Of a stretch of DNA of 64,000 bases, positions 9,171-37,183 are shown one piece after another. The notes beneath the pieces were generated by a model, which saw nothing but the letters and a program-made list of their open reading frames with translations, did not search any database and was not told the origin of the DNA. The DNA is from Escherichia coli (GTDB taxonomy: Bacteria; Pseudomonadota; Gammaproteobacteria; Enterobacterales; Enterobacteriaceae): assembly GCF_024223415.1 (NCBI RefSeq), contig NZ_CP100500.1. The stretch is one strand, 5' to 3'. The first letter of the stretch is position 1; every line of letters begins with the position of its first letter. The position numbers and the translations under genes were made by a program.

Positions 9171-9340
<170 letters not shown>

Positions 9341-11023: not shown

Positions 11024-11701
11024 TTAATAGGGATGCAACACATTACTTGCTTCGCAATGCCGCATACATAACAGAATATCTGCGGCCTCCAACAACCCTG
11101 CATCAGAACTGACGCCCAGTTTCGACATCACATTAAATTTATGTGCACGGATCGTTTTGATATTGCGTTTAAGCTGCTCGGCAATTTGTGTCATTGAGTA
11201 GCCACGCGACATAAAGCGCAATATTTCTCTCTCCGTCGGGCTTAACGTCCGGCTTTGGTTAATGTACCACTGATTGTTCAGTCGGTCGGTCGCCTGACGT
11301 ACACCATTTAATGACAAAAAGAGTTCCTGATGAAAAATCTCCAGCGTTGACGCTTTACTTAATACACCGTCCAGCGGTGATGGCGACAATGAACCAATCA
11401 GCCGAGCTTCAATATCATCATCCGCAATAACTAAACGCCGGGTACGCGGAAACTTAATCGCCAGTTCAGTCAGGCAAGATAATCCCTCTCTGCGCTCACT
11501 TCTCATGGCAGAAAAAGAAAAAATGACCGCCGCAAACGAGATCCGCGACATGGCATCCTGAAATGACTCCTGACTGGTATAGGTATGGAGCTTATAAGGG
11601 TTACCCGCAAACTTTCTGAATAAACTCTCAATACCGATACTACTCATGACGCATTTTTCTATGAGTGCGACATTTCTCTTCTTAATTCGGCTGTGTTCCA
11701 T
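11024..11701 (-). CDS. bglJ: LuxR-family transcriptional regulator BglJ
   Basis: 225-aa ORF with C-terminal LuxR-type HTH; overlaps the yjjQ 3' end. Confidence 0.85.
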
Positions 11702-12384
11702 TCTGCGGCATCTCCATAAACAGAAGGCAAGTTAAGTTCTCTTGCACCCTGCGCGCTATTTATCCATGCATACATTTCAGCGTTGCTGTGAATTGCCAGT
11801 CGACGCATCGCACTGTTTTTTTGGGCGCTGATAGTTTTATTACTTTTCTTAAGCAATGAAGCTATCTGGTTGATGCCCCATCCTTTACCTAATAGCCGCA
11901 GTACCTTGCGCTCTGAAAGAGTGAGAATGACGGAGCGATAGCTAAAATCATGAGTTTCAGTCATTGCCGGGGAGGTCAGCATGGCGCTGATACGCTCTGC
12001 GTGCGTATTGCCGGAACGTACGGTCTTGACCAGATTCTCAATGGGTTCAACATCAGACAATAACGTCGCCGTAGGGCACATGAGCAGTTCTACTGCCTGG
12101 GAATACCAGGAGCGTGACACCATGAAAACCCAGTGAATTTCCCGATATTGTGAGATTAAAGAATAATAATGTTCACAAACAGAACGTGGATCTTCACTTT
12201 CACCGGCTAAATCAGCAATGACTAATCCGGAACGACGTAATTGTAATAAGGTAAGGTCCTCCGCAGAGGCGCTGGATATTATTTCATATTCAGGGAAGTG
12301 AGTCCTCATGACCTCTTTTAACCCTGCTTGCATAACAGGTATTTTACTGATAACAATTCCATTTTTGCAGCATCCTGGCAACAT
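11659..12384 (-). CDS. yjjQ: LuxR-family transcriptional regulator YjjQ
   Basis: 241-aa ORF with C-terminal LuxR HTH ([22 protein letters not shown]); AT-rich. Confidence 0.85.
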
Positions 12385-13002
12385 ATTTCCTCCACATCCA
12401 CTGTCTAAAAATTATGATGGTTTATTCAGGATATTCATTCCTTAAATGTTTCCAGCAAATTAATAGATTAAGCGAATAAATTATCCTTAGCATTCACTTT
12501 CATATCAGCATACTCCTGCTGCACAACAACTCCACTGCATGTGTCAGAAGGTTAGCATCAAATGATAACCTGGTGAAATAGCCTGGAGACATTTAAAATA
12601 TCTACATTAAGTTGTTAGGAATACTTAATGAAAAACAGAAATCACATTCATTTAATTTATAATTAAATGATATCCCTTCCCGCAGAATGCAAAATCACAC
12701 AACCAATATTTATTCAATGAAATCTGATGGTTTTAGCTTGTTAACATTAAAAAACGTGCCCGGTTATCTATTATCCTGATTCGTAAAGGCCAAACAATAA
12801 ATTCATTATGATGATAATATTCATGTGATAGTTTGTTTGCGGCGAGAGATAATTCGCTTTTTATCACCGAGCTTCTCCCGATAACCAGGATTAATCAGCG
12901 CAATTTTGATCTTAACCTACCGCAAAACAACCGTGCTTCATGATACAAATGGATTCTCATTATCTGAACAATACGCAGCACGTCTATGACAAAGGGCGAG
13001 TT

Positions 13003-13773
13003 ATGCAAACTGAGCAACAGCGAGCCGTAACACGGCTTTGTATCCAGTGTGGATTATTTCTTTTGCAACATGGTGCGGAAAGCGCGTTGGTTGATGAGCT
13101 TTCCTCACGACTGGGTCGGGCACTGGGAATGGACAGCGTCGAAAGTTCTATCTCTTCGAACGCCATAGTGCTGACAACTATTAAAGATGGGCAATGCCTG
13201 ACATCGACACGTAAAAATCACGATCGCGGCATTAATATGCATGTGGTGACTGAAGTCCAGCACATTGTGATTCTTGCGGAGCATCATCTGCTGGATTACA
13301 AAGGCGTAGAGAAACGATTTAGCCAAATTCAGCCATTACGTTACCCAAGATGGCTGGTAGCCTTAATGGTTGGCCTTTCTTGCGCCTGTTTCTGTAAACT
13401 CAATAACGGTGGCTGGGATGGTGCCGTCATCACCTTCTTTGCCAGTACGACCGCGATGTATATCCGCCAGCTGCTGGCACAACGTCATCTTCATCCACAG
13501 ATCAACTTTTGCCTTACCGCTTTCGCCGCCACCACCATTTCCGGATTGCTTTTGCAACTCCCCACTTTCAGCAATACCCCCACCATTGCGATGGCCGCCA
13601 GCGTTCTGCTGCTAGTGCCGGGCTTTCCGTTGATTAATGCCGTCGCCGATATGTTTAAAGGCCACATCAATACCGGACTGGCACGCTGGGCGATCGCCAG
13701 TCTGCTGACACTGGCTACCTGCGTCGGCGTAGTGATGGCACTGACGATTTGGGGGCTACGCGGATGGGTGTGA
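13003..13773 (+). CDS. yjjP: Inner membrane protein YjjP (ThrE family)
   Basis: Start at ATG 13003 ([12 protein letters not shown]) inside the 277-aa track ORF; multi-pass membrane protein. Confidence 0.85.
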
Positions 13774-14237
13774 TCGAATTTCTGTTAGCGTTGGCGCAGG
13801 ATATGATCCTCGCCGCCATTCCTGCGGTCGGCTTTGCGATGGTTTTCAACGTTCCCGTGCGGGCGTTACGCTGGTGTGCGCTGCTTGGCTCGATAGGTCA
13901 TGGTTCCCGAATGATCTTGATGACCAGCGGGTTGAATATTGAGTGGTCAACCTTTATGGCTTCGATGCTGGTCGGTACCATTGGTATTCAATGGTCGCGC
14001 TGGTATCTGGCGCATCCGAAAGTGTTTACCGTGGCGGCCGTTATCCCTATGTTCCCGGGCATATCGGCTTATACCGCAATGATTTCGGCGGTAAAAATCA
14101 GCCAGTTAGGTTACAGCGAACCGTTGATGATTACCCTGTTAACCAACTTTCTTACAGCTTCATCGATTGTTGGTGCGTTATCCATCGGTCTTTCCATTCC
14201 TGGATTATGGTTGTACCGCAAGCGCCCTCGCGTATAA
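13764..14237 (+). CDS. yjjB: Inner membrane protein YjjB
   Basis: Hydrophobic 157-aa ORF; start at ATG 13764 overlapping the yjjP 3' end. Confidence 0.85.
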
Positions 14238-22547: not shown

Positions 22548-24212
22548 TTAAAACGTTTCCCAGTTCTCCCCGCTATCTGCCACGGCCATTTTACGCAGCG
22601 CAGCTGGCGTCACGGTTTTTACCACAGCCGATGTTTCACGCTGCTGTTGCTGCTGTTGCTGAATCCGGAACACTGCCACAGCTTCGGTCAGGCGACTGGC
22701 CTGCTCTTCCAGCGCGGCGGCGGCGGCGGCAGATTCTTCCACCAGCGCGGCGTTCTGTTGAGTTACCCGGTCCATCTCAGCAACCGCTAAGCCAACCTGA
22801 TCGATACCACGGCTCTGCTCATCAGAAGCAGAAGCTATTTCGCCCATAATGTCCGTCACGCGGGTCACGGCACTGACAATCTCCGCCATTGTTTCCCCGG
22901 CGCTTTCGACCAGCGTAGAGCCAACATCCACTTTCCCCACCGAGTCTTCAATCAGGCTTTTAATTTCACGAGCCGCCTGGGCGCTACGCTGGGCCAGATT
23001 ACGCACTTCTCCCGCAACCACCGCAAAACCACGTCCTTGCTCACCCGCACGCGCTGCTTCAACCGCCGCGTTCAAAGCCAGAATATTGGTCTGGAAGGCA
23101 ATGCCGTCAATTACACTGATAATATCGGCGATTTTCTGCGAACTGGTGGAGATATCACGCATAGTCTGCACCACGTTATCTACCACTTTGCCGCCGCGTT
23201 GCGCCGTTTCAGAAGCACTTAATGCCAGATGGCTGGCCTGGCGCGCATTCTCGGCGTTCTGTTTCACCGTTGCGGTCAGTTGCTCCATGCTGGCTGCCGT
23301 CTCTTCCAGCGAAGCGGCCTGTTGCTCGGTGCGCGAAGAGAGATCGTTATTACCGGTAGCGATTTCGCTGGCACCGCTATAGATGGCATTGGCCCCGTTG
23401 CGCACATCACCGACGGTACGCATCAGTTCTCCCTGCATATGGCGCAAACTCTCTGCCAGTTGCCCCATCTCATTAGAGCCATCCACCTCAATCGGTTTCA
23501 CCAGATCGCCGCCTGCAATATGACGAATGCTGTCAATCAGGCGATTCATTGGCGCTACCAGCGAGGCTTTAATACCGAACCAGACGGCGAAGATGACCGC
23601 CAGTACGACGATCATCACGCCCACCAGAATCCACATCGCCTGGCTGTAGGAGGCATTGTTATCGCTGACGGCGATATCATAGAGCCGATCGTTTTGCTCC
23701 ATGTAAGCCACATACTGCTTCTCGAAACCGTCCTGATATCCCTGGGTCGGCTGATCAAAGAACTCGTTGATTTTGCCTGCACCTAACAGTTGGATCAGCT
23801 CCGCCAGCGCATTGTGATAAATATCGTAATTACGTTTGATCTCTGCCGCTGCGGCGGTGCTCTGACGCGGGTCACGCGGCAACGCTTCGTAATCCGCCCA
23901 GTTTTTTTCCGCCTGTTTCAGCGAAATACTGGCACTCCGCATCAGCTCAGCAACGGTTGAACCGCTACCAATATTATTCTGATCCATCATGTAGCGGATA
24001 CCCGCGCGGTTGAGGGTGTTACGCGTCTGCAACAACGCGACCCAGCTGCCATTCAGCGTGGATTGCTGCTGACGAATGGTTTGTAAAACAGTGAAATTTT
24101 CTTTGTCATTCTTTAAGGCATTAAAGAACAGACCGCCTGATGTCAGTTGTAAAAGGCCAAAAACGGCCAAAACCAGCAGTAAGCTGGTCACGATCTTGAT
24201 ACGTTTTAACAT
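22548..24212 (-). CDS. tsr: Methyl-accepting chemotaxis protein I (serine receptor)
   Basis: 554-aa MCP with HAMP domain, methylation helices and C-terminal NWETF pentapeptide; poly-Gln linker of 7 Q. Confidence 0.95.
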
Positions 24213-24242
24213 GGTTTCTCTTTCCTGTGGACCGATGCAAGA

Positions 24243-24269
24243 TTTTCGGCCTGAAATGAGAAAACTTTA
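24243..24269 (-). promoter_or_regulatory. Sigma28 (FliA) class-3 promoter of tsr
   Basis: Minus strand reads TAAAGTTT, 11-bp spacer, GCCGAAAA (consensus TAAAGTTT-N11-GCCGATAA), about 30-55 bp upstream of the tsr ATG. Confidence 0.65.
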
Positions 24270-27688: not shown

Positions 27689-28645
27689 ATGAACCCGATT
27701 GCAGTTACCCTACTCACCGGTTTTTTAGGCGCGGGCAAAACCACCCTGCTGCGCCATATTCTTAATGAACAACACGGCTACAAGATTGCCGTGATTGAAA
27801 ACGAATTCGGCGAAGTCTCCGTTGATGATCAACTGATTGGCGACCGCGCCACGCAGATCAAAACGCTGACCAACGGCTGCATCTGCTGTTCGCGCTCCAA
27901 CGAGCTGGAAGACGCACTACTCGACCTGCTGGATAATCTCGATAAGGGCAATATTCAGTTCGATCGTCTGGTCATTGAATGCACCGGCATGGCCGATCCC
28001 GGCCCGATTATTCAGACCTTTTTCTCCCATGAGATTTTATGCCAGCGTTACCTGCTGGACGGCGTGATTGCGCTGGTGGATGCGGTACATGCCGATGAGC
28101 AGATGAACCAGTTCACCATCGCCCAGTCCCAGGTTGGCTACGCCGACCGTATTCTGCTGACGAAAACCGACGTCGCAGGCGAAGCAGAGAAACTGCTTGA
28201 ACGTCTGGCGCGCATCAACGCCCGTGCACCGGTCTACACCGTCACCCACGGCGACATCGACCTGGGTCTGCTGTTCAACACCAACGGTTTTATGCTGGAA
28301 GAGAATGTCGTCAGCACCAAACCGCGTTTCCACTTTATCGCGGACAAACAAAACGATATTTCGTCGATTGTGGTGGAACTGGATTACCCGGTAGATATCA
28401 GCGAAGTTTCCCGGGTGATGGAAAACCTGCTGCTGGAATCGGCAGATAAACTACTGCGTTACAAAGGGATGCTATGGATTGACGGCGAACCTAACCGCCT
28501 GCTGTTCCAGGGCGTCCAGCGCCTCTACAGCGCCGACTGGGACCGCCCGTGGGGCGATGAGAAACCGCATAGCACGATGGTGTTTATCGGGATTCAGCTG
28601 CCGGAGGATGAGATTCGGGCGGCGTTTGCGGGGTTGAGGAAGTAA
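27689..28645 (+). CDS. yjiA: CobW/ZNG1-family metal-chaperone GTPase
   Basis: P-loop LTGFLGAGKTTLL; CICC motif; start at ATG 27689 (MNPIAVTLL) rather than the upstream in-frame start that overlaps yjiX. Confidence 0.9.
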   Translation: MNPIAVTLLTGFLGAGKTTLLRHILNEQHGYKIAVIENEFGEVSVDDQLIGDRATQIKTLTNGCICCSRSNELEDALLDLLDNLDKGNIQFDRLVIECTGMADPGPIIQTFFSHEILCQRYLLDGVIALVDAVHADEQMNQFTIAQSQVGYADRILLTKTDVAGEAEKLLERLARINARAPVYTVTHGDIDLGLLFNTNGFMLEENVVSTKPRFHFIADKQNDISSIVVELDYPVDISEVSRVMENLLLESADKLLRYKGMLWIDGEPNRLLFQGVQRLYSADWDRPWGDEKPHSTMVFIGIQLPEDEIRAAFAGLRK

Positions 28646-28678
28646 TTTTGGATGATGGCCGCCATGTGGCGGCCTGAA

Positions 28679-28981
28679 TTATTTTTTGTTCTGATCGCGC
28701 AGCATCGCTTCACGTAAAATTGCGTTCAGGCGAGTTTGATAGCCTTTACCAGGTCGCTTCAGCCATTCCATCACATCAGCATCAATACGCACCGAAGCCT
28801 GGGTTTTCAATGGCCGATAAAACTTACCGCGTTCTGCGTTAGACCATTGCTCATCGCTGGAAGGCGGGATATCACTGTAATCAATATCTTCGTCGAATTT
28901 ATTCGCCAGTGCCTTCAGTTCGGCCTCATGCTGCACATCGAGTGTAGAGGGTGTCCCTCGTTTATGTTTAACCATGCTCAT
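28679..28981 (-). CDS. brnA: BrnA-like antitoxin (DUF4415/COG3514)
   Basis: C-terminal VRIDADVMEWLKRPGKGYQTRLNAILREAM is the hallmark BrnA motif; start at internal ATG (MSMVKHKRG) overlapping the brnT 3' end by 14 nt. Confidence 0.7.
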   Translation of the reverse strand: MSMVKHKRGTPSTLDVQHEAELKALANKFDEDIDYSDIPPSSDEQWSNAERGKFYRPLKTQASVRIDADVMEWLKRPGKGYQTRLNAILREAMLRDQNKK

Positions 28982-29255
28982 AGCGACTCCTCTCTTTACG
29001 ATCTGCTTTTCGTGCACTGATGATTCGAATAATTTCATTTCCGCTTTCGAAACGGATGGTATGCGCAACCAGAATAACCACGATACCGTGAACCAGGCCG
29101 ATAGTCTGCCAGCGATACTCACCGTTTTCTATGCGATCTTGCTGTGACAAATGTTGTGGATCATCAAACACTAACACCGCATCTTCAAAGCGGATGCCAT
29201 GTTTCACCCGATTACTTTTGGCCTTGTTTGCATCCCATTCAAACTCCATTGGCAT
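28968..29255 (-). CDS. brnT: BrnT-like toxin (DUF497/COG2929, RelE-fold ribonuclease)
   Basis: N-terminus ...MEFEWDANKAKSNRVKHGIRFEDAVLVFDD is the typical BrnT signature; toxin gene lies upstream of the antitoxin as in brnTA operons; start ambiguous among three nearby ATG (29249/29255/29264). Confidence 0.7.
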   Translation of the reverse strand: MPMEFEWDANKAKSNRVKHGIRFEDAVLVFDDPQHLSQQDRIENGEYRWQTIGLVHGIVVILVAHTIRFESGNEIIRIISARKADRKERSRYEHG

Positions 29256-29451
29256 AGTTGCCATCCCTAATTGTATATACAAAAATGTATCTACAATTAT
29301 TCTGCAATTATAGCGTTGATGTTGGAAATAGCATCACGTTTTGGATAATCAACCATGAAATTGACAATGAGTAAGTTGGACTTGATTCATCCAATAGAAT
29401 TTCTCGCCTGACATGGCACACTAAACACCTCGCTGTCGTTAAGGGATTACC

Positions 29452-30618
29452 GTGAAAAACTATAAAGTTATTACCCCGCTTTTTCCTACCTATGCACAGG
29501 TTAAAGCTATGATGAAAGCCGTCTCAGGCTATTCCCTGAAAGCGGTACGCAATATGATTACCGCCATTCGCGATCAAACCGGTACGCCGCAAAAACCCGT
29601 TGACTGGTCGGAACCTGACCTGTGGATCAGCGAACGCTTAACGGGCGAAGATGCCGACATCGCCCGTCGTATTTGGGATACAGATAATCACATATTGAAC
29701 CCGCGCCACAGCTACGGCTGCTACTTATTCCTCAACTATCCCCAGTTTGAGCTGATGGAAAGCACGCCAGATGATACCTGGCAGCCCACCTCGCGCGGGC
29801 AAAAATTCCTGCAAGATGACGAAAAAACGCTGCGTTCACTGGATGACCAGGAAGGCATTCTGCAACTGCTTGAGCTGCTGGCTGGCCGGGAAATGTCGCG
29901 CCGCGCCGATTTATTGCCGGAATGGCAGGCCTTTTTGCATCAGCATTCGAAATTCGCGTCTGCAAGTTCAGTGAAAAGCACGCTCTACTCCCGTCTCTAT
30001 AACCTTATTGACCGTGGCATGGTTACTCGCGAAGGTATGAGCTATTGCATCACCGATACCGGACGCGCCTGGCTTGGAAAAGCGTTGCCAGCACGAAAAA
30101 GCGATCCGCGTAAAGAGCTGTTGGAAGCGGTGAAACGCTACAACGAGCAGCAAAAAGAGCTGCTGCGCGAACAAATCAGCACGATGAACCCGTACAAATT
30201 TGAACAACTGGTCGGTCAATTACTGGAAGCAATGGGCTACGAGCAGGTCGAAGTGACCAAAGCCTCAGGCGATAAAGGTGTGGACGTGATTGGTCAGGTG
30301 CAGGTCGGCATCACCACTATTACCGAAGTGGTGCAGGTCAAAAGAATGCAGAACACCATCACTCGACCGTATATCGACCAGTTGCGCGGAGCGTTGCCTT
30401 ACCACAAAGCCATTCGCGGTACGCTCATCACCACCGGGAAATTTGCGGCGAAATGTGCAGAAGCGGCGCTCTTTCCGGGGGCAGCGCCCATTACGCTTAT
30501 CGACGGCGATCGCTTACTGGAACTGTTAATCGAAAATAACGTCGGCATTCGCCGCAGCAATGCAGTGGAATTGCTGGATGTAGATTTGCAGTTGTTTGAT
30601 GAGCTGGAGATGGATTAA
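29452..30618 (+). CDS. Mrr-family (type IV-like) restriction endonuclease with extended N-terminal region
   Basis: C-terminal Mrr_cat-like core (GDKGVDVIG...TEVVQVKR, D...QxK variant); GTG start preceded by aaggga; ends 63 bp before hsdM on the same strand. Confidence 0.75.
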   Translation: MKNYKVITPLFPTYAQVKAMMKAVSGYSLKAVRNMITAIRDQTGTPQKPVDWSEPDLWISERLTGEDADIARRIWDTDNHILNPRHSYGCYLFLNYPQFELMESTPDDTWQPTSRGQKFLQDDEKTLRSLDDQEGILQLLELLAGREMSRRADLLPEWQAFLHQHSKFASASSVKSTLYSRLYNLIDRGMVTREGMSYCITDTGRAWLGKALPARKSDPRKELLEAVKRYNEQQKELLREQISTMNPYKFEQLVGQLLEAMGYEQVEVTKASGDKGVDVIGQVQVGITTITEVVQVKRMQNTITRPYIDQLRGALPYHKAIRGTLITTGKFAAKCAEAALFPGAAPITLIDGDRLLELLIENNVGIRRSNAVELLDVDLQLFDELEMD

Positions 30619-30681
30619 AGGGCGAAATCTGCCGTCTCTACCATTACAATAGCGACCCAATTTATCTGAACAGAGTTCATC

Positions 30682-32301
30682 ATGGCCAAAGCACCAACTA
30701 AAAAAGCCAAAGCAAAGAAAGGCTTTGAAGAAACATTATGGGATACTGCAAACCAACTTCGCGGTAGCGTTGAGTCCTCCGAATACAAGCACGTGGTGTT
30801 AAGCCTCGTGTTCCTGAAATTCATCAGCGATAAGTTTGAAGCACGCCGCAAAAAAATGATTGCCGATGGGCAAGCTGACTTCCTTGAGATGGAAGTGTTC
30901 TACCAGCAGGACAACATTTTCTACCTGCCGGAAGAGGCGCGCTGGTCATTTATCAAACAAAATGCCAAACAGGACGATATTGCGGTTCGTATTGACACCG
31001 CCCTCTCGACCATTGAGAAACGTAACCCAACCCTGAAAGGCGCGCTGCCAGACAACTACTTCAGCCGTCAGAATCTGGAAACCAAAAAACTGGCGTCACT
31101 GATTGATACCATCGACAACGTCGAAACGCTGGCACACGAAACTGACGTTGAAACGTTGTCGAAAGAAGACCTGGTCGGACGCGTTTACGAATACTTCCTC
31201 GGTAAGTTTGCCGCAACCGAAGGCAAAGGCGGTGGTGAGTTCTACACGCCCAAATGTGTGGTTACGCTGTTAACTGAAATGCTCGAACCTTTCCAGGGCA
31301 AAATCTATGACCCATGCTGCGGCTCGGCGGGGATGTTCGTGCAGTCGGTGAAGTTTGTCGAGAGCCATCAGGGTAAAAGTCGTGATATCGCGCTGTATGG
31401 TCAGGAACTGACAGCCACGACGTATAAACTGGCAAAAATGAACCTCGCCATTCGCGGCCTTTCAGCAAACCTCGGCGAACGCCCGGCAGACACTTTCTTT
31501 AGCGACCAGCACCCGGACCTGAAAGCCGACTACATTCTGGCGAACCCGCCGTTCAACCTGAAAGACTGGCGTAATGAAGCCGAATTAACCAAAGATCCAC
31601 GTTTTGCTGGTTATCGTATGCCGCCAACCGGTAACGCCAACTACGGCTGGATTTTGCATATGCTCTCCAAGCTGTCGGCTAACGGCACAGCAGGTTTTGT
31701 GCTGGCAAACGGTTCGATGAGTTCTAACACCAGCGGTGAAGGCGAGATCCGTGCGCAGATGATCGAAAATGATCTGATCGACTGCATGATCGCCCTACCT
31801 GGTCAGTTGTTTTACACCACGCAGATCCCGGTGTGTTTATGGTTTATGACCAAATCGAAGGCTGCCGACCCGGCCAAAGGTTATCGTGATCGTCAGGGCG
31901 AGACGCTGTTTATTGATGCGCGTAACCTCGGCACCATGATTAGCCGCACAACTAAAGAGTTAACGGCGGAAGATATTGCCACCATCGCCGATACCTACCA
32001 TGCATGGCGCAGTACGCCGGAAGAACTGGCTGCACGGATTGCGCGTGGTGACAGCAAGCTGGAAAAATATGAAGACCAGGCAGGCTTCAGCAAAGTTGCG
32101 ACCCTGCAAGATATTAAAGATAACGACTACGTGCTGACGCCGGGCCGCTATGTGGGTGCAGCCGAGCAGGAAGAGGACGGCGTGGCATTTGAGACAAAAA
32201 TGCGGGAGTTGTCGAAGACGTTGTTTGAGCAGATGAAGCAGGCGGAAGAACTGGATTGTGCGATTCGCCAGAATCTGGAGGCGCTGGGTTATGGGGAGTA
32301 A
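30682..32301 (+). CDS. hsdM: Type I R-M N6-adenine DNA methyltransferase subunit
   Basis: 539-aa ORF with SAM-binding motif I (DPCCGSAGMF) and catalytic NPPF (ILANPPFNL); N-terminus unlike EcoKI HsdM. Confidence 0.9.
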   Translation: MAKAPTKKAKAKKGFEETLWDTANQLRGSVESSEYKHVVLSLVFLKFISDKFEARRKKMIADGQADFLEMEVFYQQDNIFYLPEEARWSFIKQNAKQDDIAVRIDTALSTIEKRNPTLKGALPDNYFSRQNLETKKLASLIDTIDNVETLAHETDVETLSKEDLVGRVYEYFLGKFAATEGKGGGEFYTPKCVVTLLTEMLEPFQGKIYDPCCGSAGMFVQSVKFVESHQGKSRDIALYGQELTATTYKLAKMNLAIRGLSANLGERPADTFFSDQHPDLKADYILANPPFNLKDWRNEAELTKDPRFAGYRMPPTGNANYGWILHMLSKLSANGTAGFVLANGSMSSNTSGEGEIRAQMIENDLIDCMIALPGQLFYTTQIPVCLWFMTKSKAADPAKGYRDRQGETLFIDARNLGTMISRTTKELTAEDIATIADTYHAWRSTPEELAARIARGDSKLEKYEDQAGFSKVATLQDIKDNDYVLTPGRYVGAAEQEEDGVAFETKMRELSKTLFEQMKQAEELDCAIRQNLEALGYGE

Positions 32302-33604
32302 TGCTATTACAACAATAATTGGTGAACACTTGCTGATTAGAAATGGCAAATCTTCGCCATCAAGAGCCATAACAGGAGAATATCCTGTTTATGGTTCAAA
32401 TGGAATAATAGGTTATTCAGATGAATATAACGCTAATGAAAATACAATAATTATCGGGCGTGTTGGGTCATATTGTGGTTCAGTTTATATTTCCGATAAA
32501 AAATGTTGGGTCACTGATAATGCAATAATTGGAACCGCAAAGAATGAAAATGAAAGTCATTTTTGGTTCTATCTTTTAAAAAAAATAGATTTGAACAATT
32601 ATAGTACTGGTTCAGGCCAACCTCTCATTAACCAAACAATAATTAATACAATATCCGTTACCATTCCTAAGCTCAGTGAGAAAAGAGTAGCCATTGGACA
32701 TTTTTTACGCCACTTTGATCAAAAGATAAATTTATCTCTTAATATCAATCAATCCTTGGAACAAATGTCCCAAACCTTGTTCAAATCCTGGTTTGTGGAT
32801 TTCGATCCGGTGATTGATAACGCGCTGGACGCGGGAAACCCAATCCCGGAAGCGATGCAATCTCGCGCAGAACTGCGTCAAAAAGTACGTAATAGTGCAG
32901 ATTTTAAACCGCTTCTAGCGGAAATCCGCTCGCTTTTCCCAAGTGAATTTGAAGAAACCGAACCAGGATGGTTACCTAAGGGCTGGAAACATGGTAATTT
33001 AAATGATGTCACGAAGATCTTAAGTGGGTTTGCTTTTAAGAGTAAAGACTTTGGTGATGAAGGTAAAAGTGTCATAAAAATAAAGAACATTAATATCGAT
33101 AAAACAATTGATATAGATCATACTCAAAAAATTTCTGATATCGTAGCCAAAGACGTAAAGCGTTTTCAATTATTTGATGCCGATATTTTGATGGCTATGA
33201 CTGGTGCCACGGTCGGTAAATTTGGAATATTAGCATCAAAAAATCATGAAGAATATTATCTTAACCAACGAGTTGCGAAGTTTGAAACAGATAAAAAAGC
33301 TTACCTTTATTGTATATTGAATCAAGAAAGTACCGAAAGATTTATAATCAATACAGCTCAGGGCAGTGCACAACCAAATATCAGTGCTAAAGATATTTTA
33401 AGTATTCCACTCACACTACCATCAAACGAAATAATAACTATATTCAATACATTTGTTGATCCTTTATTCTACAGAATGATAGCGAATACAAAAGTTAGTT
33501 TAAGTCTAACAGAACTCCGCGACACCTTGCTCCCAAAACTCATCTCCGGCGAGCTCTCCCTGGAAGATCTTCCGGATCTCAGCACCAATACAGAAGCCGC
33601 ATAA
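32291..33604 (+). CDS. hsdS: Type I R-M specificity subunit
   Basis: Two AT-rich variable target-recognition regions separated by a conserved central region (SLEQMSQTLFKSWFVDFDP) plus conserved C-terminal helix (LTELRDTLLPKLISGEL); ATG at 32291 overlaps the hsdM 3' end. Confidence 0.85.
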   Translation: MGSNAITTIIGEHLLIRNGKSSPSRAITGEYPVYGSNGIIGYSDEYNANENTIIIGRVGSYCGSVYISDKKCWVTDNAIIGTAKNENESHFWFYLLKKIDLNNYSTGSGQPLINQTIINTISVTIPKLSEKRVAIGHFLRHFDQKINLSLNINQSLEQMSQTLFKSWFVDFDPVIDNALDAGNPIPEAMQSRAELRQKVRNSADFKPLLAEIRSLFPSEFEETEPGWLPKGWKHGNLNDVTKILSGFAFKSKDFGDEGKSVIKIKNINIDKTIDIDHTQKISDIVAKDVKRFQLFDADILMAMTGATVGKFGILASKNHEEYYLNQRVAKFETDKKAYLYCILNQESTERFIINTAQGSAQPNISAKDILSIPLTLPSNEIITIFNTFVDPLFYRMIANTKVSLSLTELRDTLLPKLISGELSLEDLPDLSTNTEAA

Positions 33605-33612
33605 CGCATTTT

Positions 33613-33637
33613 GCCCCTGTAAAATCAGGGGCTTTCT
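33613..33637 (+). terminator. Hairpin with T-run between hsdS and hsdR (possible attenuator)
   Basis: gcccctg-taaaat-caggggc followed by tttct, 9 bp after the hsdS stop and about 60 bp before the hsdR ATG. Confidence 0.45.
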
Positions 33638-33698
33638 GGTAAGGTTTTCTACTGATACGGGAATGCTTACCAGAAATTAGCCAGGGTTGGAGCGCGAT

Positions 33699-36600
33699 AT
33701 GAGTCTCTCTTTCAGTGAAGCAAAATTAGAACAAGCGATCATTGAACTGCTGCAGGATCAGGGATATCAACACCTGATCGGCGATAATGTCCCACGTTCA
33801 AGTCTCGATCAGGTCATCATCGAAGACGATCTCCGTCATTATTTAGCGGCACGCTACCAGCCTGATGGCATTACTGAAGAAGAGATTCAACGGCTGATCA
33901 AACAGTTCACCACGCTTCCGGCCTCCGACCTTTATGAAAGCAACAAAACATTTTGTCGCTGGCTGGCAAATGGTTTTCTGTTCAAACGCGACGATCGGCA
34001 ACAAAAAGATCTCTATATTGAATTGCTCGACACCCGGCATCTACCCGCCGCACTGCGCCAGATATTTGACACCGACGATGTCCCGTTGCAACAGGCGGCG
34101 GAACTCCCGCCTTCCTATATTAATCCGCCGCTTAACCGGATTAAGATTGTTAACCAGCTTAAAATCTCCGGTAAAGATAATCAGACTCGTATTCCTGACG
34201 GCATTCTCTATATCAACGGTCTGCCACTGGTCGTCTTTGAATTTAAAAGTGCGGTGCGCGAGCAAGAAGCCAGTATTGGCGATGCCTGGAAGCAGCTCTG
34301 TAAACGCTATCGCCGGGATATTCCGCAACTGTTTATCTACAACGCGCTCTGCGTTATCAGCGATGGCGTAAATAACCGGATGGGCAACCTGTTTGCGCCC
34401 TATGAATACTTTTACTCATGGCGCAAAGTCACCGGTAATGAAAACCGTGAACAGGACGGAATTCCATCATTGCACTCAATGATTCAGGGGCTGTTTCATC
34501 CGGTACGTCTGCTGGACGTGATTAAAAACTTTATCTGCTTCCCGGATAAAGCCAAGCACGAAGTAAAAATTTGCTGCCGATATCCGCAGTACTATGCCGC
34601 CCGCAAACTCTATTACAGCATCAAGCAAGCGCGTAAACCTTTCGGTAGCGGTAAAGGCGGCACCTACTTTGGCGCAACGGGCTGTGGCAAAAGTTACACC
34701 ATGCAATTTTTAACGCGTCTTTTGATGAAGAGCGTGGAGTTTGCCAGCCCGACCATTGTTTTGATCACCGACCGCACCGATCTGGACGATCAGCTTTCTG
34801 CGCAAATGTGCAACGCCAAAAATTACATTGGCGACGACACCATCGTTCCTGTTACCAGCCGTGAAGATTTGCGTAATCAACTGGCGGGACGCAATAGTGG
34901 CGGTGTATTCCTGACAACGATCCATAAATTCACCGAAGACACCGAACTCCTTTCTGAACGCAGCAATATCATTTGCATCTCGGACGAAGCACATCGCAGC
35001 CAGGTTAACCTCGACCAGAAAGTCATCGTCGATAAAGAAAGCGGAAAAGTGCGCAAAACTTATGGCTTTGCGAAATACCTGCACGATTCACTGCCAAACG
35101 CCACCTATGTTGGCTTTACCGGCACACCGATTGACGCGACGCTCGATGTCTTCGGTGAGGTGATCGACAGTTACACCATGACCGAATCCGTTCAGGATGA
35201 AATCACTGTACGCATCGTGTACGAAGGCCGTGCGGCTAAAGTGATCCTGGACTCCAGTAAACTGGAAGAAGTTGAAAAGTATTACGAAGAGTGCGCAAAC
35301 GCAGGCACCAATGAGTGGCAAATCGACGAAAGCAAAAAAGCCACCGCAACCATGAATGCGGTACTGGGTGATGAAGATCGGTTAAAAGCCCTCGCGGAAG
35401 ATTTTGCCAAACATTATGAAAAACGCGTAGACGAAGGTTCCACCGTAAAAGGCAAAGCCATGTTTGTTTGTGCCAGCCGTGAAATTGCCTGGGATTTCTA
35501 CCGTCAGCTTAAAGCTATTCGCCCTGCCTGGTTTGAAGTGAAGCAAGCACCCGATGGCGTCGTCCTGACGGAACAGGAGCAGAAAGAGTTACCGCCTTCA
35601 GAAATGGTGAAGATGGTCATGACGCGCGGTAAAGATGACGACGAGGCGCTTTATGATTTACTGGGCACAAAAGAATATCGTAAAGAGCTGGATAAACAGT
35701 TTAAAAACGCTAAATCGAATTTCAAAATTGCCATTGTTGTTGATATGTGGCTGACCGGTTTCGACGTCCCGGAACTGGATACCATCTATATTGATAAACC
35801 CTTACAAAAACATAATCTTATCCAGACCATTTCTCGCGTTAACCGTAAACTGGAAGGCAAAAGTAAAGGGTTAGTGGTGGACTACATCGGCATTAAAAGT
35901 CAGATGAACCAGGCACTGGCAATGTATTCCCGCATTGATGCCACCAACTTTGAAGATATTCAGCAATCGGTAATAGAAGTTAAAAACCATCTCGATTTGT
36001 TGGGGCAAGTCTTTTACGAATTTGACAGTCGGGATTATTTTAGTGGTGAGCCACAAGCGCAATTATCCTGCCTCAACCGCGCGGCGGAATTTGTTCTGCG
36101 TACCCAGAAAGTTGAACGTCGTTTTATGGGACTGGTTAAACGCATGAAAGCCGCCTACGACGTCTGCTGCGGCAGCGAAGCATTATCACAGACAGAACGT
36201 GACTATATTCACTATTATCTTGCTGTTCGTTCAATTGTTTTCAAACTGACGAAAGGTGACGCACCGGATGTCACCCAGATGAATGCACGCGTTCGTGAAA
36301 TGATTGCAGAAGCGTTAAAAGCTGATGGCGTAGAAGAGATTTATTTTCTTGGCGATAAAAAAGCGGAATCCATCGATATTTTTGACGAAGATTATCTGGC
36401 ACGAATTAACAAGATCAAACTTCCGGCAACGAAGATCCAGTTATTACAAAAATTACTGGAAAAAGCGATCAGCGACTTCAAGAAAGTGAACCAGTTGCAA
36501 GGGATTAACTTCACCCGCCGCTTCCAGGCAATTATAGATCGTTATAATGAGCGGCGAGAAGATGATGTACTCAACGGTGAAGAATTCGATACATTCAGTC

Positions 36601-36962
36601 AGGAAATGACCGATATTATCTATGATATTAAAACCGAAATGGGCACCTGGGCCGATTTAGGCATTGATATTGAAGAAAAAGCGTTTTTCGACATTCTTGC
36701 TCATATGCGCGATAAATATCAGTTCACCTATGACGATGAAAAAATGCTGTCACTGGCAAAAGAGATGAAAAGCGTGGTTGACAACACATCGAAATATCCT
36801 GACTGGAGTAAACGTGATGATATTAAAGCGAAACTGAAAGTTGAACTTATTCTGCTTCTACACAAGCATAAGTTCCCGCCAGTAGCGAATGATGATGTTT
36901 ATATGGGTGTGCTGGCACAGGCAGAGAATTTTAAAGAACACCATATGAGTGCTTTAAATTAA
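33699..36962 (+). CDS. hsdR: Type I R-M restriction subunit (nuclease/helicase)
   Basis: N-terminal PD-(D/E)xK (…LPLVVFEFKS), Walker A (GATGCGKS), DEAH box (ISDEAHRSQ); ATG 33699 preceded by ggag. Confidence 0.9.
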   Translation: MSLSFSEAKLEQAIIELLQDQGYQHLIGDNVPRSSLDQVIIEDDLRHYLAARYQPDGITEEEIQRLIKQFTTLPASDLYESNKTFCRWLANGFLFKRDDRQQKDLYIELLDTRHLPAALRQIFDTDDVPLQQAAELPPSYINPPLNRIKIVNQLKISGKDNQTRIPDGILYINGLPLVVFEFKSAVREQEASIGDAWKQLCKRYRRDIPQLFIYNALCVISDGVNNRMGNLFAPYEYFYSWRKVTGNENREQDGIPSLHSMIQGLFHPVRLLDVIKNFICFPDKAKHEVKICCRYPQYYAARKLYYSIKQARKPFGSGKGGTYFGATGCGKSYTMQFLTRLLMKSVEFASPTIVLITDRTDLDDQLSAQMCNAKNYIGDDTIVPVTSREDLRNQLAGRNSGGVFLTTIHKFTEDTELLSERSNIICISDEAHRSQVNLDQKVIVDKESGKVRKTYGFAKYLHDSLPNATYVGFTGTPIDATLDVFGEVIDSYTMTESVQDEITVRIVYEGRAAKVILDSSKLEEVEKYYEECANAGTNEWQIDESKKATATMNAVLGDEDRLKALAEDFAKHYEKRVDEGSTVKGKAMFVCASREIAWDFYRQLKAIRPAWFEVKQAPDGVVLTEQEQKELPPSEMVKMVMTRGKDDDEALYDLLGTKEYRKELDKQFKNAKSNFKIAIVVDMWLTGFDVPELDTIYIDKPLQKHNLIQTISRVNRKLEGKSKGLVVDYIGIKSQMNQALAMYSRIDATNFEDIQQSVIEVKNHLDLLGQVFYEFDSRDYFSGEPQAQLSCLNRAAEFVLRTQKVERRFMGLVKRMKAAYDVCCGSEALSQTERDYIHYYLAVRSIVFKLTKGDAPDVTQMNARVREMIAEALKADGVEEIYFLGDKKAESIDIFDEDYLARINKIKLPATKIQLLQKLLEKAISDFKKVNQLQGINFTRRFQAIIDRYNERREDDVLNGEEFDTFSQEMTDIIYDIKTEMGTWADLGIDIEEKAFFDILAHMRDKYQFTYDDEKMLSLAKEMKSVVDNTSKYPDWSKRDDIKAKLKVELILLLHKHKFPPVANDDVYMGVLAQAENFKEHHMSALN

Positions 36963-36969
36963 TTATGAA

Positions 36970-37000
36970 GGCCGGATACACTTTGTTATCCGGCCATTCT
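36970..37000 (+). terminator. Hairpin after hsdR
   Basis: ggccggata-cactttgt-tatccggcc followed by attct; weak T-tract. Confidence 0.45.
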
Positions 37001-37082
37001 GAATTAACGTTAATTTCTCTTCCAGATCTTTCCAGTAACGCTTTTATTATTTTCTATTTTTAGCTGGACTATCCCTGTATTT

Positions 37083-37104: not shown

Positions 37105-37183
37105 TAGCGCGGTGCGGATGTGCGCCAACACACCCGCACCGCTCATCACAATCACTATTTTCAAGGAATAGCAGTTATGACTG
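37105..37183 (-). ncRNA. symR: SymR antisense sRNA (approximate coordinates)
   Basis: Placed by analogy with the K-12 symE/SymR type I TA arrangement, where a ~77-nt antisense RNA overlaps the symE RBS and start codon; boundaries not determined from sequence. Confidence 0.35.

Follow-up and report, generated by a model that had tools for sequence, protein, structure and literature searches.

The long AT-rich spacer between yjjQ-bglJ and yjjP-yjjB of Escherichia coli: very probably a shared regulatory region repressed by H-NS and relieved by LeuO

The AT-rich promoters of bgl, leuO and the CRISPR-Cascade operon cas are silenced by H-NS (together with StpA) and are relieved of silencing by LeuO. 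The intergenic region between the divergent genes yjjQ and yjjP resembles them in these properties. It also shares a regulatory network with them, in which bgl and leuO are activated by BglJ-RcsB and the yjjQ-bglJ operon is activated by LeuO. Repression of yjjQ-bglJ by H-NS and activation by LeuO are mentioned, with reference to Stratmann et al. 2008 (J Bacteriol 190:926), in several papers (PMC5025477; PMC4264507; PMC2646131), and are also described in a further one, according to which the operon "would otherwise be expressed" in hns stpA mutants (PMC3950696). Stratmann et al. 2008 and later papers from the same laboratory are reported to show repression of both yjjQ-bglJ and yjjP by H-NS, and their activation by LeuO. 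A genomic SELEX table places an H-NS site and sites for the RpoD RNA polymerase holoenzyme in the yjjP/yjjQ spacer in vitro (PMC3946193). The H-NS-silenced status of the spacer is already known, having been published since 2008. The original prediction for this DNA, made from the sequence alone, had proposed an H-NS-silenced promoter region here, and it matches the literature both on H-NS repression of yjjQ-bglJ and on the SELEX H-NS site within the spacer.

We consider it very probable that the entire spacer, positions 12385-13002, is a shared regulatory region of the yjjQ-bglJ operon and of yjjP-yjjB that is repressed by H-NS and relieved of repression by LeuO. In the proposed arrangement, core promoters would lie near the two ends of the spacer, and the AT-rich centre would recruit H-NS, helped by StpA, to form a repressive nucleoprotein complex. 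This complex would keep both divergent units almost silent in laboratory culture. LeuO, a LysR-type regulator, would bind inside the spacer and remodel or displace the H-NS complex, and repression would thereby be relieved. The arrangement would include a loop, with LeuO itself repressed by H-NS, BglJ-RcsB activating leuO, and LeuO activating yjjQ-bglJ; the LeuO/BglJ feedback loop has been described as having little effect under laboratory conditions (PMC5025477). Within this framework, we infer from the sequence which footprint binds which protein and exactly where transcription starts.

We analyzed the spacer in its setting, a 64-kb stretch of E. coli DNA (the window). The window is 98-99% identical to MG1655 in the parts that the two share, and its hsd/mcr region is different, indicating that the strain is not K-12. 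Segments that are non-homologous to MG1655 or strongly diverged from it, 28645-37046 and 45760-56453, are located around the hsd/mcr 'immigration control' region, and 48763-50791 has merely 81.6% identity to MG1655. The 818 bp around the spacer (12285-13102) are 100% identical to E. coli K-12 strains and derivatives. On the left side of the spacer is the silenced target, the yjjQ-bglJ operon (11024..12384, minus strand). Its open reading frames, yjjQ (11659-12384) and bglJ (11024-11701, overlapping the end of yjjQ), are the same as those in RefSeq, and each encodes a LuxR/FixJ-type regulator. On the right side is the divergent target, yjjP-yjjB (13003..14237, plus strand), in which RefSeq places yjjP at 13003-13773, followed by yjjB at 13764-14237. 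Both are ThrE-family exporter genes, and a role of yjjP-yjjB in succinate export has been mentioned (PMC13192267).

To compare the locus between species, we scanned species-representative genomes for YjjQ and obtained 80 loci from Escherichia, Citrobacter, Salmonella, Klebsiella, Enterobacter, Kluyvera, Raoultella and others. The yjjP gene was found in 77 of the 80 loci, and its orientation was divergent from yjjQ-bglJ in every one of the 77. These loci bear on where the spacer ends. The original prediction described a 555-bp untranslated region at 12385-12939, of which the left border holds and the right border does not. The figure of 555 bp comes from an old model of yjjP with 277 amino acids and a start codon at 12940..12942 (plus strand), and the abstract of the 2008 study by Stratmann and colleagues is likewise said to give a 555-bp intergenic region. 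In RefSeq, YjjP has 256 amino acids and begins at the ATG at 13003. Several observations agree with RefSeq. Among the 77 species loci, the ATG aligned with residue 22 of the 277-aa YjjP is kept in 61, and the 21-codon N-terminal extension of the old model is interrupted by stop codons in 34 of them. The ATG at 12940 overlaps the TG of a conserved extended -10 promoter-like module, described below. In a natural isolate with an IS10 insertion at 12969-12981, the 256-aa yjjP is still annotated by RefSeq as a complete coding sequence. The ATG at 12940 is therefore probably not a start codon, and we take yjjP to start at 13003. It follows that the divergent non-coding spacer extends from 12385 to 13002 and is 618 bp long; the 555-bp interval is this spacer minus its last 63 bp.

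The AT content of the spacer is far over background. The full spacer has 34.5% GC, and the interval 12385-12939 has 33.9% GC, compared to 49.5% for the 64-kb window. Only 2.9% of all 555-bp windows in the 64 kb are as AT-rich as this interval. In the annotation of the matching 64-kb stretch of MG1655, the yjjQ/yjjP spacer is the longest of 41 intergenic regions, and it is among the top three for AT-richness when intergenic regions longer than 200 bp are ranked. The claim of a long, AT-rich spacer between divergent yjjQ and yjjP was thus correct. Measured in 50-bp steps, GC content falls to 24-28% at 12435-12484, 12585-12734 and 12785-12834. The most AT-rich core of the spacer, 12585..12734, is likely to be the zone of H-NS nucleation and binding. 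In the 2008 work of Stratmann and colleagues, the DNA bound by H-NS is reportedly in the middle of the spacer, away from the two divergent promoters.

There were other AT-rich places in the window. Additional 555-bp windows with minimum GC contents of 29.5-35.5% are present at 45757-46612, 47285-47816, 32841-33083 and 24047-24264, and we list these as candidates for H-NS-bound regions. A second long AT-rich untranslated region had been proposed at 60952-61613, upstream of iraD and yjiC. This region is indeed AT-rich (31.6% GC). It is not untranslated, since K-12 RefSeq annotates the small genes idlP and ytiD and a 33-aa ORF between iraD and yjiC. Of these, the window has intact ORFs for ytiD and for idlP, which encodes the leader peptide of iraD. 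Control of iraD by H-NS was reportedly described by Battesti et al. in 2012.

We analyzed the spacer for features beyond base composition that might be expected of an H-NS target. The high-affinity consensus TCGATAAATT is said to come from Lang et al. 2007. We scanned the spacer with this 10-bp nucleation consensus and compared the number of matches to that in shuffled sequences. There was no match with one mismatch or fewer in the spacer. Three matches were found with up to two mismatches, compared to 1.7 ± 1.4 in shuffles, and 16 with up to three mismatches, compared to 10.9 ± 3.3, a number reached by 9% of the shuffles. By this comparison the 10-bp motif is not clearly enriched in the spacer over what its composition provides, and recruitment of H-NS to the spacer therefore looks composition-driven. 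Phased A-tract curvature is often cited for H-NS-silenced promoters and is not obligatory. The curved-DNA-like A/T tracts that had been attributed to the spacer were not borne out. There were nine runs of at least four A or T in the spacer, compared to 11.0 ± 2.4 in dinucleotide-preserving shuffles, and so no excess. The phasing of AA/TT at 10-11 bp within the spacer was not significant, with 11% of shuffles reaching the same level.

Could the AT-richness be no more than a trace of foreign DNA that was acquired recently, a xenogeneic island to which H-NS binds incidentally and which has no dedicated regulatory architecture? The composition of the genes is in keeping with this explanation. The GC contents of yjjQ (45.0%) and bglJ (45.3%) are below the 49.5% of the window, and the GC content of yjjQ is lower than that of yjjP in 74 of 74 species loci; the description of the operon as itself AT-rich is true, if only to a modest degree. 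The distribution of the locus argues against it. A 3.3-kb query around the spacer matched 5424 of 5426 complete E. coli genomes, and the genes beneath the matches were bglJ, yjjQ, yjjP and yjjB. The gene arrangement is the same in the 77 Enterobacteriaceae species loci and is not patchy, and the spacer contains conserved motifs at specific positions. Near-universal presence, conserved gene order and conserved motifs together indicate an old and maintained regulatory region instead of a recent arrival, and we regard a foreign-DNA origin of the AT-richness as very unlikely.

Comparison of species also indicated the side of the spacer to which the AT-rich tract belongs. The yjjQ and yjjP genes are adjacent in 54 of the 77 loci and separated in the other 23. 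Among the 54 adjacent spacers, the median length is 443 bp (mostly 384-709 bp) and the median GC content is 36.4%, compared to 51.6% for the loci, with the smallest gap being 7.7 percentage points. In the 23 separated species, a gene for an FAD-dependent (FAD-binding) monooxygenase is located between yjjP and yjjQ. The genera with this insert are Klebsiella, Kluyvera, Raoultella, Pseudocitrobacter, Intestinirhabdus and, for some of its species, Citrobacter. Two inserts were examined: that of Klebsiella pneumoniae (locus L071, 1653-3735) contains the monooxygenase gene and a gene for an AraC-family regulator, and the shorter one of Pseudocitrobacter (locus L031, 2455-3645) contains the monooxygenase gene alone. 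Measurements in 22 of these 23 loci gave a median GC content of 34.4% for the 250 bp upstream of yjjQ and values of 43-58% for the 150 bp upstream of yjjP. Because the DNA upstream of yjjQ is AT-rich and that upstream of yjjP is near normal when the two genes are apart, the AT-rich tract belongs to the yjjQ-bglJ side, where it is conserved across Enterobacteriaceae.

We aligned 46 of the adjacent spacers. Overall conservation was low, with a mean of 0.33, and the least conserved stretch was 12655-12890, with approximately 8-34% column identity. There were discrete conserved footprints in the alignment: the ribosome binding sites and start codons of both genes, the -10 element of yjjQ, a dyad in the centre of the spacer, and a module proximal to yjjP.

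At the yjjQ end, the Shine-Dalgarno sequence GGAGG (12389..12393, minus strand) is 5-9 nt upstream of the ATG and is part of a block, 12376-12395, that is conserved in the 46 spacers. A consensus scan predicted a sigma-70 promoter for yjjQ, CTGATA-17-GATAAT, on the minus strand (-35, 12508..12503; -10, 12485..12480). The same hexamers were located independently from the SELEX table, in which CTGATA-17-GATAAT is the best-match yjjQ promoter (PMC3946193). The -10 element at 12485..12480 is kept, as GATAAT or GATAAA, in Escherichia, Citrobacter and Salmonella. From these positions, transcription of yjjQ would start near 12474.

At the yjjP end there were two candidate promoters. The SELEX 'best-match' in the direction of yjjP, ATGAAA-17-TTTAAT, was placed by its sequence at 12628..12656 on the plus strand (PMC3946193). 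It has no conservation outside Escherichia, and yjjP is probably transcribed mainly from another promoter. The second candidate is the conserved yjjP-proximal module at 12906..12949 (plus strand), which consists of TTGATC (12906-12911), 29 nt, and TGnTAnA (12941-12947). In our sequence the latter part is an extended -10 element, TG-A-TACAAA (12941-12949), with TACAAA (12944-12949) as the hexamer. The TTGATC...TGnTAnA module was found in 49 of the 54 adjacent loci and in 5 of the 23 separated ones (54 of 77 in total), compared to 9 of 15,400 shuffles, and it is located 33-62 nt upstream of the conserved yjjP ATG across species. TTGATC is invariant and includes a Dam GATC site (12908-12911), and its distance from the extended -10 is fixed at 28-29 nt in approximately 54 species. 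We propose that TGnTACAAA is the extended -10 promoter of yjjP, from which transcription would start near 12956. The supplement of transcription start sites of Kim et al. 2012 has no entries for yjjP or yjjQ.

Other readings of the TTGATC block were tried and set aside. As a -35 element, TTGATC would be 32 nt from the -10 hexamer, which is too far, and there is no conserved -10 element 16-18 nt downstream of it. Readings of the block as a site for FNR, CRP or an alternative sigma factor were a poor fit as judged by eye.

A hidden product, such as a small protein, a small RNA, or an extended and structured yjjP leader that includes an attenuator, might also explain the length of the spacer. The spacer contains mechanically called ORFs of 44-45 aa, and a terminator-like hairpin followed by a T-run is present on the plus strand at 12841-12858 (to 12868), upstream of the yjjP module. 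In addition, the promoter predicted at 12628-12656 would give a yjjP leader of approximately 340 nt. Several results speak against such a product. The one terminator-like site found compares to 0.6 expected by chance, and conservation of the hairpin does not extend across genera. The least conserved stretch, noted above, lies in the spacer interior, and the 46-spacer alignment has no cross-genus conserved stretch in the interior that would be long enough for a small ORF. Most adjacent spacers in other genera are shorter than that of E. coli, commonly approximately 390-520 bp. The conserved yjjP module is only approximately 55 nt from the ATG. There was no Rfam family in the spacer, either at the gathering threshold or at E ≤ 1, apart from a chance lncRNA match with E = 0.94. 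We regard a hidden product as very unlikely. Elsewhere in the window, naRNA4 (Rfam; a nucleoid-associated ncRNA of the REP repeat type) is present in four tandem copies approximately 101 bp apart at 1188-1569, between yjjW and yjjV, with a fifth copy at 9239-9321, upstream of three tRNA-Leu genes. The SymR antitoxin RNA is at 37106-37182.

The dyad in the centre of the spacer is the footprint that we associate with LeuO. This conserved 13-bp sequence, TTAGGAATACTTA, is located at 12615..12627 and has the form TTAG-N5-CTWA, which is a T-N11-A box of the LysR type. The dyad occurs once per spacer in 31 of the 46 adjacent spacers, compared to 6% of shuffles, and its distance from the yjjQ start codon is always approximately 190-250 bp. 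Among the 23 separated species, 9 have the dyad upstream of yjjQ as well. The core site of LeuO has been described as palindromic, with 5 bp between its half-sites and with a T-N11-A motif (PMC6698644). The dyad has the same architecture, both in its T-N11-A box and in the 5-bp separation of its half-sites, and we therefore read it as a candidate LeuO core site.

It is also conceivable that the main control is exerted by a LuxR/FixJ-type protein bound to the dyad, through autoregulation by YjjQ or through an RcsB-containing dimer, with LeuO not being the principal regulator and H-NS being secondary. On its opposite strand the dyad reads TAAGTATTCCTAA, and this sequence has both half-sites of the RcsA-RcsB box, TaAGaa followed by tatTCctA (PMC3950696). 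The half-sites in the dyad are 2 bp closer together than in the RcsAB box, a spacing too short for the dyad to be a canonical box of this kind, whereas the dyad agrees with the LeuO site both in its T-N11-A pattern and in having 5 bp between the half-sites. The position of the dyad is also relevant. LeuO sites were reportedly mapped by Stratmann and colleagues to the middle of the spacer, away from the yjjQ promoters, and to DNA overlapping the yjjP promoter. We judge primary control by a LuxR/FixJ-type protein to be unlikely, and we favor relief of H-NS repression by LeuO.

The spacer varies among natural E. coli isolates. Some have insertion sequences inside it, at 12385-12389, 12831-12839, 12930-12942 and 12969-12981. 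In the four such isolates that we examined, there was an IS3 adjoining the yjjQ ATG, IS1 at two sites, and an IS10/ISVsa5 just upstream of yjjP. An uninterrupted copy of the spacer was absent in approximately 24 of the 5424 genomes, and IS1 was found in 2 of 60 evenly sampled matches. Insertions of IS elements in the yjjP/yjjQ region have been reported as adaptive during evolution in the mouse gut (PMC5094792), and patterns of SNPs in the intergenic region between yjjP and yjjQ-bglJ have been reported as host-informative biomarkers of sheep- and pig-derived E. coli (PMC11267920). A more speculative idea, which we think rather improbable, is that the dyad and the TTGATC element with its Dam GATC site may dock a further regulator or form a methylation-sensitive switch. 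Such a regulator or switch could supply the natural signal that opens the H-NS-locked node, in which case the recurrent IS insertions in the spacer would bypass it genetically.

A small regulatory hub is controlled from this spacer. YjjQ acts as a repressor and binds regulatory DNA of flhDC, and BglJ acts with RcsB to activate bgl, leuO and roughly a dozen further loci. Conceptually, our analysis adds nothing to the H-NS lock and LeuO key that were published in 2008. What it adds is the corrected border, with yjjP starting at 13003, the finding that the AT-rich tract goes with yjjQ, and three conserved motifs placed with enough precision to be mutated. The locus of Stratmann et al. 2008 is the same region as the one analyzed here, and the only difference is that the spacer now extends to 13002 following the re-annotation of yjjP.

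Compared to bgl, leuO and cas, the yjjQ/yjjP spacer differs in that it serves two divergent units, and no BglJ-RcsB site has been reported within it. Silencing of bgl also uses a downstream H-NS site within the transcription unit. The yjjP/yjjQ spacer is also comparable to other 'type-A' divergent spacers. Those between nanC and fimB and between yjgM and yjgN bind the RNA polymerase holoenzyme and H-NS in vitro, as does yjjP/yjjQ (PMC3946193), and csgD/csgB and flhDC/uspC are other long AT-rich divergent spacers of this type with H-NS sites. The specific regulators of these four spacers differ from those of yjjQ/yjjP, and several spacers of this kind are known targets of IS elements.
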